This document shows, one piece after another, positions 55,727-60,179 of a stretch of DNA of 64,000 bases. This DNA is from an uncultured Woeseia sp. (GTDB lineage: Bacteria; Pseudomonadota; Gammaproteobacteria; Steroidobacterales; UBA11654): the NCBI GenBank assembly GCA_964454905.1, contig CAYVTR010000004.1, positions 7,309 to 71,308 on the forward strand, in the 5' to 3' direction. Every line of letters begins with the position of its first letter. The first letter of the stretch is position 1. A program made the position numbers and the translations under genes. The notes under the pieces were generated by a model. The model worked only from the letters and a program-made list of their open reading frames with translations. It was not told the origin of the DNA and did not search any database.

Positions 55727-56205
55727 CCGAGCGTGGCACTAAGAACTTTCTCAGCTTGTTCTGCCCTATAATTTTTAAGTTGTTTGGCAAGGGACTCATC
55801 TTTCAAAGCCATAATTGATATGGCATATAGCGCGGCATTAATGGCTCCTGGTTTGCCAATAGCAACTGTTCCAACAGGAATACCAGGAGGCATTTGAACA
55901 ATTGCCATGAGTGCATCCATTCCATCAAGTGAACCAGCAATTAATGGAACACCAATAACAGGTATGGTTGTTTGAGCTGCCACTACGCCTGGTAAAGCTG
56001 CTGCAAGACCTGCACCTGCTATAAAGACTTGGATTCCATTGTTTTCAGCCTCGACTATGAACTCTTCTAATTGTTTAGGAGTTCTATGAGCAGAGAGAAC
56101 TCTAGATTCATGTTCTATACCAAATTTATCCAGCAATTTTGAAGCATTAGACATCACATCCCAATCGGATGCGGAACCCATAATAATTGCTACTTGAATA
56201 CTCAT
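55723..56205 (-). CDS. purE: N5-carboxyaminoimidazole ribonucleotide mutase
   Basis: 160 aa. GSASDW, AHRTP and GAGLAAALPGVVAA..T.PVIGVP blocks. Confidence 0.95.
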   Translation of the reverse strand: MSIQVAIIMGSASDWDVMSNASKLLDKFGIEHESRVLSAHRTPKQLEEFIVEAENNGIQVFIAGAGLAAALPGVVAAQTTIPVIGVPLIAGSLDGMDALMAIVQMPPGIPVGTVAIGKPGAINAALYAISIMALKDESLAKQLKNYRAEQAEKVLSATLG

Positions 56206-56279
56206 AGTCTAATTCTACAATGTCTTATTTAGTCTGTCTAAGTAAGATAGAATAAAGACATAAATGTTATTGAAAAAAT

Positions 56280-57602
56280 ATGCATACTAATAATCTCCAA
56301 AAACAGGCCGAAATGGCTTTAAAACATGCTATTGATATGGGGGTCGATCAGGCCAGCGTCAGATTTTCTTATGGGGAAGGGTTTTCAGTAACAGCACAAA
56401 ACGGAAAAATAGAGACTGTAGAAGACTACAAAGATCAAAGTTTTACAGTAACTGTTTTTTTACAAAAATCTATTGGTTCAGCAAATTCAAATAACATGGA
56501 TGAGCTATCTATTAAAACCACTGTTGATAAAGCCTTTAGCCTTTCAAGCTTGACGGCAAGTGATGATTGTAATGGTTTAGCTGATAAAGAACGTATGGCA
56601 AACAAAGCAATTGATTTAGATCTATATCATCCATGGGATCTTGGAATTGATAATGCAAAACAGATAGCAATGGAGTGCGAAGAAGCTGCATTAGAGTCTG
56701 ACAATAGAGTGGTTAATTCAGAAGGAGCAACTGTTGGTAGTTATATCACTAAATCCTTATTTGCAAATTCACATGGTTTTATAGGGTCTAGTGAAGCCAC
56801 GGGACACACAATAAGTTGTGCCGCAATTGCAGAACACAATGGTTCTATGGAAATGGATTATGATTATTCAAGTGCTCGTCATCATGAAGACCTTATGGAA
56901 CATAAAATAATTGGTCAGCGAGCCGGCTTAAGAGCAGTTGAGCATTTAGGCGCCAGAAAAATAAAAACACAAAAAGCCTCTGTAATTTTTTCTCCCAGAA
57001 TATCTGGTAGTCTGGTCAGCCACATAATGAATGCTATAAGTGGATCAAGCTTATATCGTAAATCGTCTTTTTTGTTGAATGCTAAGGACAAACAAATCTG
57101 CCCAGATTTTATAACAATTAAAGAAGAGCCTCATTTGAAACGCGGTTTCTCAAGCAGTTATTTTGATGCTGAAGGTGTTCAAACTAAACAGAGAAATATC
57201 ATAGAGGATGGTGTGCTTAAAGGGTATTTATTATCAAGTTATTCAGCACGCCGACTAGGCATGGAAACGTCTGGCAATGCCGGCGGCCATCATAATTTGA
57301 TTCTAGAACCAACTGATGAACATGATATGGAATCAATGATAAAAAATATGAAATCTGGTTTTCTTATCACAGGGTTGATTGGTTATGGGGTTAATATGGT
57401 TAACGGTGATTATTCCAGAGGGGCAAATGGTTTTTGGGTTGAAAATGGTGAAATTGCATATCCTGTCAGTGAAGTAACAATAGCTGGTAATCTGAAAGAT
57501 ATGTTAATGCAAATTACTTCTGTGGGGAATGATCCTGAAAAAAATGGCTCTATTTACTCCGGTTCTATTTTGATGGACAATTTAATGATCGCAGGAGAAT
57601 AA
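56280..57602 (+). CDS. pmbA: metalloprotease PmbA (TldE)
   Basis: 440 aa, TldD/PmbA-fold protein without the HExxxH motif. C-terminal GDYSRGA.GFWVENGEI.YPV.E.TIAGNL block. Confidence 0.9.
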   Translation: MHTNNLQKQAEMALKHAIDMGVDQASVRFSYGEGFSVTAQNGKIETVEDYKDQSFTVTVFLQKSIGSANSNNMDELSIKTTVDKAFSLSSLTASDDCNGLADKERMANKAIDLDLYHPWDLGIDNAKQIAMECEEAALESDNRVVNSEGATVGSYITKSLFANSHGFIGSSEATGHTISCAAIAEHNGSMEMDYDYSSARHHEDLMEHKIIGQRAGLRAVEHLGARKIKTQKASVIFSPRISGSLVSHIMNAISGSSLYRKSSFLLNAKDKQICPDFITIKEEPHLKRGFSSSYFDAEGVQTKQRNIIEDGVLKGYLLSSYSARRLGMETSGNAGGHHNLILEPTDEHDMESMIKNMKSGFLITGLIGYGVNMVNGDYSRGANGFWVENGEIAYPVSEVTIAGNLKDMLMQITSVGNDPEKNGSIYSGSILMDNLMIAGE

Positions 57603-58841
57603 ATGCATATAAAATTAACAAGTTTAATATTCTTATTTCTATTTTATTCACCCATTCATGTTTTTGGGCATGGAGCAGTGCAAAGAGCATCAGAATTAAA
57701 AGACAGTGAAGTACGTTTGTTTGTTGCTGACAATATGGATGGATCGGTTGTTGTTGTTGATTTCCCAGATGGTGAAATCACCCACAGAGTGTCAACTTCT
57801 CCTTCAATCATGATTCTGGCATCGAACAAAGACAACAAATACATTTATGCAATGCGAGGCAGAGATACGGATAATGATCTTACCAGTATTCTAAGCACTG
57901 GTTTTGATATGAAGGAACAGCAATTTAGGAAACCTCATGTTATTAGAACAATCAAAACCGATACTCCAGGCGGCCCAAGGGACAGCAAAATGGCAACTGT
58001 TGGTGGTTATGACGCCATCTTGACAGAAGGTGAAGCAGAAGTGGTCGTTATTATGTCAGATGATATTGATGGTTATTCTGAGCTAAAAACGAAACGTTAC
58101 AAGATAGCTGAACCTGATCACTATCATTATTTAGAGGGTGAGACTTATCTTTATATAGGGCATCTCTTTAACGGTTTTGTACAAGTCCTGGATCGATCAA
58201 CTGGTGAGGAGGTGAAAAGAATTAACGGATGTCCTATGTTGCATGGTATGACAGAAGATGAAGAATCTGGGCGGTTAATTTTTTCATGCGCTAGAGATGT
58301 TATTGTGGTCGGAACATTAGGAGAAGAAAAAGCAAAACTCATCGCAAGAATTCCTTATCCAGAAAACACAGGAAGAGGTTGTGCGGCATTTCTCAAAGGC
58401 GAGGGTCGTGTGCAATGGTGTTACACAGAGGGCATCATTCCTAGACTCTACCGAGTGGATTTTGCACAAGAACCTTATCAATTTACGACTTTATCGGTTG
58501 AATCCTCAATTCAACAGAATTCTAGCGATGATGGAAAATATTTAATGGTGTTGTCTAAACAAGGTGTTTTGTATTTGTACCATGGTCGGGATGGTAACTT
58601 AATTAAGACAATTCAAGTCTCAGAGCCTTTTCTAGGGGATTGGTTTGAGGACGTGGGTAAAGCAATCCTTCCTGACATTGAATCTCATAATGGCATTGCA
58701 TACATCTCATTGACCCATGAAGGAAGGATTGCTGAGATTGATTTGGAGCAAGGGAAGATTAAAAGATATATTGATATAGGTGGTTTTCCAACAAGGATAG
58801 TGCTCCTTGCTAAAGAAACTTTGGTCGACGCTACTAACTAA
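57603..58841 (+). CDS. secreted beta-propeller-like protein, uncharacterised (possibly YVTN/AztD-like periplasmic metal-binding protein)
   Basis: ATG abuts the pmbA stop (TAAATG), with AGGAG 5 nt upstream. N-terminal signal-like segment MHIKLTSLIFLFLFYSPIHVFG. Repeated VxxD..G blade-like strands. His/Cys clusters (EPDHYHY, GCPMLHG, FSCARD). No confident family recognised. Confidence 0.6.
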   Translation: MHIKLTSLIFLFLFYSPIHVFGHGAVQRASELKDSEVRLFVADNMDGSVVVVDFPDGEITHRVSTSPSIMILASNKDNKYIYAMRGRDTDNDLTSILSTGFDMKEQQFRKPHVIRTIKTDTPGGPRDSKMATVGGYDAILTEGEAEVVVIMSDDIDGYSELKTKRYKIAEPDHYHYLEGETYLYIGHLFNGFVQVLDRSTGEEVKRINGCPMLHGMTEDEESGRLIFSCARDVIVVGTLGEEKAKLIARIPYPENTGRGCAAFLKGEGRVQWCYTEGIIPRLYRVDFAQEPYQFTTLSVESSIQQNSSDDGKYLMVLSKQGVLYLYHGRDGNLIKTIQVSEPFLGDWFEDVGKAILPDIESHNGIAYISLTHEGRIAEIDLEQGKIKRYIDIGGFPTRIVLLAKETLVDATN

Positions 58842-58853
58842 GAGGAAATTATT

Positions 58854-59264
58854 ATGAAAAAGAGCATCAAATTTTTATTTATCAGTTTGATGGCAGTATT
58901 TATTGGAACTTATTCTCAGTCCGATGTATTTGCCCATGCTGATCATGATAAGGACGCTATTATTATACAAATGGCTGATATTATGATTAACCTAGAGCAT
59001 TTTCCTACTGCTGATGAGAAGAAAAAATTACAATCGGTCTTAGATTCTGCCGCATCGACTGATCAGGAGAAAATTATTGCCAATGCGATAATGCATATAC
59101 AACATTCACCTACTGTGGAAGATAAAGACAAGTTACAGCTCATTATGGACAATACAGTTGTAACTTCGACAGTAAATACTCTAGCAAAGATTGTTCAGAG
59201 TTTTTCTCATGGAATCTCAAAAACAGATAAAAGAAAGCTACAGACTATAAAATTCAAAGGATAA
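58854..59264 (+). CDS. small secreted protein with three 35-aa repeats, uncharacterised
   Basis: AGAGGA 7 nt upstream of the start. Signal-like N-terminus MKKSIKFLFISLMAVFIGTYSQSDVFA. 136 aa. No family recognised. Confidence 0.6.
   Translation: MKKSIKFLFISLMAVFIGTYSQSDVFAHADHDKDAIIIQMADIMINLEHFPTADEKKKLQSVLDSAASTDQEKIIANAIMHIQHSPTVEDKDKLQLIMDNTVVTSTVNTLAKIVQSFSHGISKTDKRKLQTIKFKG
58959..59261 (+). repeat. three protein-level repeats of exactly 35 aa within the small secreted protein
   Basis: The H-x-(P/I)-(T/S)-x-x-(D/E)-K-x-K-L-Q core recurs at residues 49-60, 84-95 and 119-130. The upstream Ala (41/76/111) is also conserved. Confidence 0.7.
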
Positions 59265-59303
59265 ACCCATAATTTACTAGACCTAATAATTTCTCTTTAA
59301 TTA

Positions 59304-60179
59304 CTAGAGACCAGTGATGATGTTATAGGCACTTTTGTATTTCTTCGCAGTATTATCAATGATTTCTTTAGGTAAGTTAGGACCAGGTGCTGTTTTATTC
59401 CAGTCAAGTGTTTCTAGATAATCTCGTAAATACTGTTTATCAAAACTAGGTGGGCTGGTTCCTACAGCATAATTCTCGACTGCCCAGAAGCGAGAAGAAT
59501 CAGGTGTTAAAACTTCATCAATGAGATACAAATTATTATCTTGATCCTGTCCAAATTCAAATTTAGTGTCAGCAATAATAATGCCACGCTCTTTTGCGTG
59601 GGAGACCCCATAGTTATATATTTCTATGGCTTTATCTCGTACTGTTGCAGCCAGTTCTGTACCTATGAGATCAATGGTTTTTTGATAAGAAATATTTTCA
59701 TCGTGATCACCGGCCTCAGCTTTCGTTGCAGGGGTATAAATTGGCTCTGGGAGTTGGGCGGCCATGTTTAGATTCTCTTCTAGCTTGATACCACAAACTG
59801 AACCTGTTTGTTGGTAATCTTTCCAACCTGAACCGATTAAAAAACCCCTAACAACAGCTTCTATCGGCAGCGGCTTCAGTCGTTTCACCAGCATGCTTCT
59901 GTTTTGGAAGTAACCCAATTGATCTTGAGGAACAATATCTTCAAGATTGAGATCATCAGTAAGGTGATTAATGGCAATATGTTCTGTTTTGTTAAACCAG
60001 AACTCTGAGAGTTGTGTTAATACTTCTCCTTTTCCAGGGATTGGATTGGGCAGCACAACATCAAAAGCAGACATTCTGTCTGTGGTAACAATAAGCAGAT
60101 GACCTTCATCAACAGAATAAATATCTCTGACTTTACCCTGGGCAATGAGTTCTAGATTTTGTAGTATTGGAGCTTCCAC
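59304..60179 (-). CDS. purC: phosphoribosylaminoimidazole-succinocarboxamide synthase (long form)
   Basis: GKVRDIY, SAFD and IIADTKFEFG blocks. 291 aa. Confidence 0.94.
   Translation of the reverse strand: MEAPILQNLELIAQGKVRDIYSVDEGHLLIVTTDRMSAFDVVLPNPIPGKGEVLTQLSEFWFNKTEHIAINHLTDDLNLEDIVPQDQLGYFQNRSMLVKRLKPLPIEAVVRGFLIGSGWKDYQQTGSVCGIKLEENLNMAAQLPEPIYTPATKAEAGDHDENISYQKTIDLIGTELAATVRDKAIEIYNYGVSHAKERGIIIADTKFEFGQDQDNNLYLIDEVLTPDSSRFWAVENYAVGTSPPSFDKQYLRDYLETLDWNKTAPGPNLPKEIIDNTAKKYKSAYNIITGL

Follow-up and report, generated by a model that had tools for sequence, protein, structure and literature searches.

AztD, the zinc metallochaperone of the AztABCD system (Paracoccus denitrificans, Citrobacter koseri; PDB 6ck1, 6cmk, 6n01), is the described protein closest to the propeller considered here. 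AztD folds as an eight-bladed beta-propeller with a disulfide between Cys214 and Cys231 (P. denitrificans numbering; PMC6689063, PMC7463823). Its pore contains zinc site 1, formed by His124, His167 and His218, and 95% or more of AztD sequences have these residues (PMC6689063, PMC7463823). Site 2, consisting of His99, His102 and Asp104 of a blade-2 hairpin plus a C-terminal His, is the sole AztD site that passes zinc to the binding protein AztC (PMC6689063, PMC7463823). An N-terminal DHDHDHE motif constitutes a third zinc site, and a His-containing loop of AztC has been modelled as entering the AztD pore (PMC7463823, PMC6689063). We analysed two adjacent genes, referred to as gene 1 and gene 2, that follow pmbA in a 64-kb stretch of DNA from an uncultured Woeseia sp. 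(hereafter the window). The original prediction, made from the sequence of this stretch, could not assign the pair to a known family and suggested that the products handle metal in the periplasm. Contrary to the former statement, gene 1 specifies a remote relative of AztD, and gene 2 is one member of a large family that has not been described before. The reading that we favor, to which we assign a probability of about 0.5, is that the two proteins would constitute a periplasmic zinc-handling module in which an AztD-like propeller, its metal site remodelled, works with a recruited small partner carrying three His residues.

To our knowledge, AztD is the only beta-propeller so far shown to hand metal directly to another protein, and we know of no role for its site 1. 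A sister family with an N-terminal His and a pore site but no donor site would reveal the purpose of the pore site and how propeller metallochaperones diversified. Open-ocean zinc (or copper) is scarce enough to limit growth, and a dedicated periplasmic capture pair, encoded amid a dense run of housekeeping genes, would therefore be ecologically relevant. Seawater metagenomes contain the window organism in abundance, and metatranscriptomes include both genes.

Relationship of gene 1 to AztD

A Pfam search with gene 1 gave sub-threshold propeller matches only, and phmmer searches of PDB with the single gene 1 and gene 2 sequences yielded nothing useful. The NCBIfam AztD model (NF038015) matched gene 1 with 38.6 bits (E = 5.3e-10), residues 41 to 400 of the protein aligning with positions 1 to 352 of the 356-position profile. 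A family alignment of 37 gene 1 homologues that have diverged to 29% identity (A1) was then used as a profile. This profile, the only sequence query that reached AztD in PDB, matched the AztD sequence (6cmk/6n01) at E = 8.6e-13 over residues 34 to 401. Comparison by hhalign with a Thermus AztD from a related locus gave a probability of 98.9% and an E-value of 1.8e-17 over 356 columns. The AlphaFold2 model of gene 1 has a predicted local distance difference test score (pLDDT) of 92.8 and a predicted template modelling (TM) score of 0.89. The top nine Foldseek matches of this model in PDB were all AztD chains (E = 1e-20 to 3e-17, TM-score 0.70–0.80); the next fold was an archaeal YVTN propeller (E = 6e-13), with cd1 nitrite reductases at about 1e-12. 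Identity between gene 1 and AztD is 16–18%.

These results largely show that gene 1 falls into a sister family of AztD that has not been described and for which there is no curated model. It is also largely shown, as far as the predicted structure can be relied on, that the protein has an AztD-type beta-propeller fold and AztD-type disulfide cysteines. The resemblance to AztD noted in the original prediction is a real homology by NCBIfam, PDB profile, hhalign and Foldseek comparisons alike.

Cluster names were all either 'hypothetical' or 'YncE family', and NCBI and UniRef call a Thermus member 'YncE family protein'. Escherichia coli YncE and the YVTN propellers associated with pyrroloquinoline quinone catabolism are, like gene 1, secreted YVTN-type propellers. 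However, YncE has seven blades, and Foldseek places AztD far above YncE for gene 1. We rejected membership of gene 1 in the YncE family, as model NF052280 matches residues 34 to 79 only and gives 24 bits where the cut-off is 400.

The residues invariant in A1 are H23, R38, D43, D53, R85, G86, R87, T89, P111, H173, L188, C210, H214, R224, C229, E242, R249, R258, G321 and P357. Gene 1 shares with AztD the disulfide cysteines, within a C-P-x-L-H-G motif, and two of the three site-1 pore His residues (Table 1). In contrast, the H-x-x-H-x-D hairpin of site 2, the C-terminal His and the third site-1 His of AztD are not found in gene 1, which has no His within residues 100 to 111 and ends in ...LVDATN. 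We conclude that gene 1 is AztD-like in its frame yet is not AztD, because the disulfide and two pore His residues are kept, the third pore His varies and site 2 is deleted. The invariant N-terminal His23 might take the place of the third pore His. Conversely, the family has features that AztD does not: an invariant predicted mature N-terminal His, an RGRDTD motif with an Arg cluster, and an H-E-H loop that was lost in this lineage. R85, R87, R224 and R258, together with E242, are without counterpart in AztD. The H-E-H loop, present in most family members, reads H-E-H-(V/T)-D-K-A within a long loop spanning residues 339 to 358.

Sec-type N-termini that expose a His after cleavage had been proposed for both products, and this remains the prediction. 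The 37 gene 1 homologues have hydrophobic presequences of 7 to 38 residues. The predicted cleavage context has A, G, S or T at −1 in 34 of the 37, a small or aliphatic residue at −3 in every one, and His at +1 in every one. As H23 is invariant after a typical Sec presequence in all 37, the prediction of a mature N-terminal His amounts to a family-wide rule. The corresponding residues of gene 2, A27 and H28, are invariant in the clade in which gene 2 is linked to gene 1. His23 and His28 begin at nucleotides 57669 and 58935, as had been given. The segments EPDHYHY (170–176), GCPMLHG (209–215) and FSCARD (227–232), and Cys residues 210, 229, 260 and 273, which had likewise been pointed out, are all present in gene 1.

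Some gene 1 homologues (P0050, P0034) end in long tails rich in His and Asp, e.g. DDHGHDHDHGHGDD...HDHDHDDGDGHDHDHG and GGHGHHH. These tails resemble the C. koseri AztD tail and the His-rich loops of ZnuA.

The gene 2 family

The 35-residue repeat that had been reported to occur three times in gene 2 was borne out by a shuffle test. Repeats 1 and 2 align with z = 11, a score reached in none of 2000 shuffles, and comparison of either with repeat 3 gave z = 5.5–5.6. A word-indexed search with gene 2 did not reach beyond close relatives, which are about 136 aa long and come almost exclusively from marine samples. An exhaustive profile search recovered 423 cluster representatives at E ≤ 1e-3, 256 of them at E ≤ 1e-10. 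Most members of this family are 120 to 140 aa long and have signal peptides. Columns H49, H84, H119, L59, A76, D90, L94 and L129 are invariant, and P51 occurs in 90% or more of the sequences. The single conserved His per repeat that had been noted in the window protein therefore holds across a family that has diverged to about 25% identity.

No Pfam model, LTXXQ/CpxP included, matched gene 2 or ten family members at E ≤ 1. No NCBIfam model covers the family; a sub-threshold match to the 55-aa BPSL0761 family recurred (best E = 1e-4). In the AlphaFold2 model, pLDDT exceeds 90 over most of residues 34 to 136, and six helices form three hairpins with each conserved His in a hairpin loop. Residues 15 to 31, including the mature N-terminus, are disordered in the model. 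A Foldseek search of PDB with this model found no relative (best E = 0.87). From its sequence, gene 2 is a member of a widespread, previously undescribed family of small secreted proteins with three His-containing repeats. It is the more novel element of the pair, gene 1 being a variation on the known AztD kind. The family has an obvious three-His signature, and a single biochemical result with it would annotate hundreds of clusters of small secreted proteins. Assignment of gene 2 to the CpxP/Spy/ZraP (LTXXQ) group was rejected; there was no model match, the only trace being ZraP at E = 0.19 in one member, and no Foldseek match.

The three-repeat domain is also embedded in the large secreted proteins P0114 (430 aa), P0115 (246 aa) and P0123 (875 aa), which carry Ca-binding, cadherin or FG-GAP-like repeats. 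The domain thus behaves as a portable extracellular module. Across 72 loci (330 kb) that contain members of the wider family, we found no gene 1 relative, pmbA, ZnuA or conserved neighbor beyond local synteny, and in three Pfam-annotated contexts the gene 2 relative stands alone. In two of these three, a soluble quinoprotein dehydrogenase of the GSDH/TrAA12 type is encoded 0.4 to 1.5 kb from the gene 2 relative (L048 2268–3500, L052 5801–6997). GSDH/TrAA12 is a different periplasmic beta-propeller; its proximity may be due to chance or may reflect a wider association of the gene 2 family with propellers.

Small or periplasmic His-rich elements of known zinc systems, i.e. ZinT, the DHDHDHE motif of AztD, the His-rich loop of ZnuA, PA4063 and ZrgA, offer a parallel to gene 2, a small periplasmic protein with a flexible His/Asp tail (HADHDKD) encoded beside a zinc-chaperone-like gene. 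However, gene 2 is an all-helical three-repeat protein without sequence or fold relationship to any of these elements. Moreover, the wider gene 2 family, unlike the His-rich zinc shuttles, has neither the tail nor a zinc context.

Linkage, genomic contexts and the metal handled by the pair

The gene order tldD, purE (opposite strand), pmbA, gene 1, gene 2, purC (opposite strand) does not vary among 22 loci of the window's clade, across which identity drops to 60% for gene 1 and to 38% for gene 2. The predicted mature protein starts with H-x-(D/N)-H-(D/G/A)-(K/N/S) in all 14 distinct gene 2 homologues that are linked to gene 1, and H-x-x-H is lacking there in every one of the 47 distinct family members without such linkage. 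In all 22 gene-2-linked loci the propeller has lost both His residues of the H-E-H loop, the sequence there being (F/N)-E-D. H-E-H is kept in all 20 readable loci without linked gene 2 except for a remote Thermus sequence. This complementary gain of the tail and loss of H-E-H suggests that the gene 2 tail may supply ligands in trans. The DHDHDHE zinc site of AztD and the modelled entry of the AztC loop into the AztD pore are precedents.

In the zinc-handling module that we favor, the metal site of gene 1 would comprise His23, through its position at the alpha-amino terminus, and pore residues H173 and H214, beside which we infer His23 to lie. Gene 2 would capture or exchange metal as the partner of the propeller. 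Its H-x-D-H tail might replace the lost H-E-H ligands in trans, and might insert at the propeller pore in the manner modelled for the AztC loop and AztD. The two genes would be read together, with transcription continuing from the 3' end of pmbA.

Outside the clade of the window, pmbA never adjoins a gene 1 homologue, and two kinds of neighbor recur: zinc homeostasis genes and cytochromes. Directly upstream of the homologue in locus L001 are genes for a Fur-family regulator (best match Zur), a TonB receptor (best match ZnuD), DUF1826 and a COG0523 GTPase. The upstream genes in L041 specify a Fur/Zur-like protein, ZIP, a receptor, DUF1826 and MerC, and the homologue in L029 is flanked by ZIP, Rrf2 and ZrgA. 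A ZnuA gene (best match AztC) overlaps the downstream end in L031, and P0047 is a natural fusion of a homologue to a ZnuA domain with the His-rich loop HSHGLGEEHSHE. A Thermus locus combines a homologue, ZnuA and a closer AztD homologue. A context of ZnuA-family and/or Zur-type genes like that of AztD occurs in relatives (L031, L002, L013, L001); neither aztABC nor a ZnuA-family gene was found in the window. The neighborhood families shared with AztD are those of the ZnuA/AztC type, Zur-like regulators and COG0523, adjacent or fused.

The Thermus sp. 2.9 locus (L013 5393–14843) contains, in order, genes for alkaline phosphatase, the gene 1 family member, an unknown 144-aa protein, ZnuA, the AztD homologue (152.7 bits, with site-2 hairpin EDHGEHKD), NosD, an ABC ATPase and NosL. 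This gene set indicates that the two propeller paralogues coexist around one binding protein.

Several observations weigh against a zinc-handling module. The third site-1 His (AztD His124) is K129 in gene 1, at a position that varies across the family, and zinc-donor site 2 is absent, the position of its hairpin falling inside a 6-residue deletion. The 38.6 bits scored by gene 1 compare with a curated AztD cut-off of 400, a value that the Thermus AztD homologue, which is closer to AztD, does not reach either (152.7 bits). Neither znuABC nor any other zinc gene was found within the 64-kb window. No Zur box was found near the genes in the window or in the loci of relatives, a weak negative obtained with gammaproteobacterial and alphaproteobacterial consensus sequences. 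Acquisition of H-x-D-H and disappearance of H-E-H characterize one and the same clade and so count as a single evolutionary event. The wider gene 2 family consists of stand-alone genes without zinc neighbors. Finally, a monohaem cytochrome c is encoded directly upstream of the homologue in eight gammaproteobacterial/Chromatiales loci, and a cytochrome c' in two alphaproteobacterial loci. It is mainly these cytochromes, which we cannot reconcile with a pure zinc chaperone, that keep our confidence no higher than 0.5. The metal-handling pair of the original prediction thus gains from the AztD homology, the zinc-locus relatives and the His conservation, and loses from the missing site 2, the low curated score and the pairing of gene 1 with gene 2, which is confined to one marine Woeseia-like lineage.

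The upstream cytochrome c is a conserved 150-aa protein with one CxxCH and the motifs GTGHSxHHP, RWYT, PPPL.G.GH..HHP and GGTMPSF; three of these cytochromes have His-rich C-termini (DHEAHH, GGHRH, PGHEH). Cytochrome c and the gene 1 homologue appear to form a two-gene module in Chromatiales-like genomes, where no other neighbor is conserved. As ten loci pair the propeller with a cytochrome, the metal, most probably zinc, may instead be a redox-active one. A dedicated cytochrome c or c' accompanies the propeller in half of the non-marine loci, and for this reason the family may be something other than a passive zinc chaperone. A combined reading, which we put forward tentatively, is that the AztD sister family has acquired a new and perhaps redox-linked metal centre whose ligands moved in trans to gene 2 in the marine clade. 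The donor site would have been deleted, and the centre would consist of the N-terminal His, the two pore His residues and, in most members, the H-E-H loop. The propeller could then be a redox-linked periplasmic metalloprotein, e.g. one that reduces or oxidizes metal for uptake. The H-E-H ligands would, in pelagic Woeseia-like bacteria, have shifted to the H-x-D-H tail of the recruited gene 2, and the gene 2 family (at least 423 clusters) would represent a new class of periplasmic metal-binding protein.

The cytochromes also lend themselves to an explanation that dispenses with zinc, namely that the propeller is an enzyme or metal reductase, partnered by c-type cytochromes, whose ligand is a cofactor or a redox-active metal (Cu or Fe). 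The N-terminal His would form a histidine-brace-like Cu(II) site, and gene 2 would replace the cytochrome as partner in this lineage or deliver the metal. Pairing with a cytochrome fits a redox-active metal better than zinc, and a mature N-terminal His is a hallmark of the histidine-brace copper sites of CopC, LPMO and PmoB. A CopC-CopD gene lies two genes from the homologue in L012, in keeping with this explanation. The structural neighbors that follow AztD include the propellers of cd1 nitrite reductase, NirN and NirF, in which haem d1 is bound via His and Arg, and the invariant Arg residues of gene 1 that AztD does not have suggest an anionic ligand or cofactor. We nevertheless consider this explanation doubtful. 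AztD is the nearest protein by both sequence and fold, by 7–8 orders of magnitude in E-value, and Met- or Cys-rich Cu(I) motifs are lacking. Typical zinc markers are present, namely the tails rich in His and Asp and the ZnuA, ZIP, ZrgA and COG0523 genes that are fused or adjacent to homologues, and the window lineage has no cytochrome gene beside the pair. With respect to the brace itself, which the original prediction had raised as a CopC/LPMO-type site, CopC, LPMO and PmoB share with gene 1 an invariant N-terminal His (predicted in gene 1) but have unrelated folds, so that the fold gives no indication of a brace; furthermore, the contexts of gene 1 are more often those of zinc than of copper.

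An explanation without any role for metal is that gene 1 is a YncE-like periplasmic binding or scaffold propeller and gene 2 a generic periplasmic helical protein, e.g. a stress chaperone of the Spy/CpxP/ZraP kind, the conserved His residues being structural. Gene 1 does match YncE in part (NCBIfam E = 1.3e-5; PDB 3vgz E = 6e-6), although these matches span only about 45 residues, and gene 2 has no LTXXQ/CpxP-family match at E ≤ 1. The wider gene 2 family has no metal-gene neighbors, its domain occurs inside the large secreted repeat proteins described above, and the P-S-x-x-E that follows each gene 2 His resembles a helix N-cap. Even so, an invariant His in each repeat at about 25% identity is hard to explain structurally, the same applies to the invariant residues H23, H173 and H214 in gene 1, and the zinc-locus contexts and the ZnuA fusion favor metal handling. 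On balance, we regard this explanation as improbable.

Locus organization, transcription and the pmbA adjacency

The positions of the features are compiled in Table 1. The pmbA product matched the first, second and third PmbA_TldD domains of Pfam and scored 468 bits with the NCBIfam PmbA model against a cut-off of 438. The gene 1 ATG directly abuts the pmbA TAA, and 12 nt separate the gene 1 stop from the gene 2 start; this layout and the ribosome binding sites agree with the original prediction. The purC gene, on the opposite strand, is convergent at 59304. The host group comprises uncultured marine Gammaproteobacteria; records of metagenome-assembled genomes of this clade are labelled Woeseia or Woeseiaceae, and many seawater metagenomes hold near-identical copies of the window sequence.

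Table 1. Features of the gene pair and related loci. Positions are those of the window unless a locus is named.
Feature	Position	Strand	Basis or remark
pmbA (tldE), predicted cytoplasmic metalloprotease subunit	56280..57602	+	Pfam, NCBIfam; translation without signal peptide
Gene 1 ribosome binding site AGGAG	57593..57597	+	Within pmbA 3' end, 5 nt ahead of ATG; read from sequence
Gene 1, secreted AztD-like beta-propeller, 412 aa	57603..58841	+	NCBIfam, profile vs PDB, hhalign, AlphaFold2, Foldseek
Gene 1 Sec signal peptide, residues 1–22, cleavage after ...HVFG, before H	57603..57668	+	−3/−1 rule in 37 homologues; model helix 3–20
His23, predicted first mature residue, motif A-then-H-G	57669..57671	+	Invariant in 37/37 homologues; aligns with A-then-HGP of Thermus AztD
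R85-G-R-D-T-D90; R85, G86, R87, T89 invariant; Arg cluster with R224, R249, R258	57855..57872	+	
P-D-H-Y-H-Y, residues 171–176; invariant H173 aligns with AztD His167, second site-1 ligand	58113..58130	+	
C210-P-M-L-H214...C229, all three invariant; equivalent to AztD disulfide Cys214-Cys231 and third site-1 ligand His218	58230..58289	+	
C260 and C273, second Cys pair, in the gene-2-linked marine clade only	58380..58421	+	Alignment A1
W-F-E-D-V-G-K, residues 347–353, position of lost H-E-H-V-D-K; E349 kept	58641..58661	+	
Gene 2 ribosome binding site GAGGA	58842..58846	+	Read from sequence
Gene 2, secreted 136-aa protein, three helical hairpins	58854..59264	+	AlphaFold2 model, family profile
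Gene 2 Sec signal peptide, residues 1–27, ...DVFA-then-H	58854..58934	+	n/h/c regions, −3/−1 rule
Gene 2 mature N-terminal tail H-A-D-H-D-K-D, residues 28–34, disordered in the model	58935..58955	+	
Gene 2 repeat 1, residues 36–70; invariant His49 (58998–59000) in hairpin loop	58959..59063	+	
Gene 2 repeat 2, residues 71–105; invariant His84 (59103–59105)	59064..59168	+	
Gene 2 repeat 3, residues 106–136; invariant His119 (59208–59210); clade-invariant C-terminus DKRKLQ.I.FKG	59169..59261	+	
Monohaem cytochrome c gene	L011 6494–6967		
Monohaem cytochrome c gene	L012 6492–6965		
Monohaem cytochrome c gene	L033 7513–7968		
Monohaem cytochrome c gene	L034 1057–1503		
Monohaem cytochrome c gene	L035 7457–7924		
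Monohaem cytochrome c gene	L040 5975–6424		
Monohaem cytochrome c gene	L042 5114–5563		

Eight RNA-labelled marine runs yielded contigs that cover gene 1 and gene 2; these metatranscriptome contigs are unstranded, and DNA carry-over is possible. Contigs 57221–58343, 57481–57956, 57429–58046 and 57504–57956 cross the pmbA/gene 1 junction, and contigs 58759–59328, 58653–59098 and 58759–58967 cross the gene 1/gene 2 junction. These contigs support the proposed co-transcription of the three genes, with the qualification that for pmbA the support is confined to the junction. In the same eight runs, contig coverage of the pmbA body (56600–57400) was far below that of gene 1 and gene 2. At 57429 the loose contig ends carry coding sequence of a diverged PmbA (ITGDYSRGA). 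Strain divergence can hence account, at least in part, for the drop in coverage, and an internal promoter deduced from RNA contig depth was rejected. Promoter-like sites were found upstream of pmbA (56194–56221) and inside it (57135–57164), a count below that expected from shuffled sequence and hence uninformative. The scan found no promoter-like site between pmbA and gene 1 and no terminator after gene 2.

The ten neighboring open reading frames with Pfam matches, as well as tldD, purE and the ribosomal-protein genes of syntenic loci, are all housekeeping genes. No ABC transporter, as had been remarked before, and no metal-uptake gene was found among the Pfam-annotated neighbors of the pair, and no cytochrome gene adjoins the pair in the window lineage. 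The PmbA and TldD translations have no signal peptide, and the products of gene 1 and gene 2 are predicted to be exported. Neither pmbA nor tldD was found nearby in about 20 gene 1 loci outside the clade or in the 72 loci of the gene 2 family. Because the products are predicted to be exported, no association was found outside the clade and the neighborhood consists of unrelated housekeeping genes, we take the pmbA adjacency for lineage-specific synteny in a compact genome rather than a functional link. The caution with which a link to the TldD/PmbA protease had been mentioned was well placed. TldD/E processes small peptides such as microcin B17, the pmbA stop abuts the gene 1 start in an arrangement kept in 22 clade loci, and RNA contigs span that junction, but service of both proteins to the protease, as substrates, maturation factor or a TldD/E-processed export product, is highly improbable given a cytoplasmic PmbA/TldD and two exported products, a dense run of unrelated housekeeping genes (Pfam, ten neighboring open reading frames) and a lack of co-occurrence in the outside loci that comes near to refutation.

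Two further genes of the window deserve mention. An aldo/keto reductase gene (PF00248; 61870–62778, minus strand), the position of which is kept in related genomes, specifies a protein with an apparent Sec signal peptide (cleavage before NHQ). Such a peptide is odd for this family, whose members are normally cytoplasmic users of NAD(P)H. A 386-aa open reading frame (52275–53435, plus strand) aligns with the YhdP model (1224 positions) over roughly its final 190 positions only and represents a remnant or else a short YhdP-like protein; the corresponding gene calls in related loci are 392 aa or over 659 aa long.

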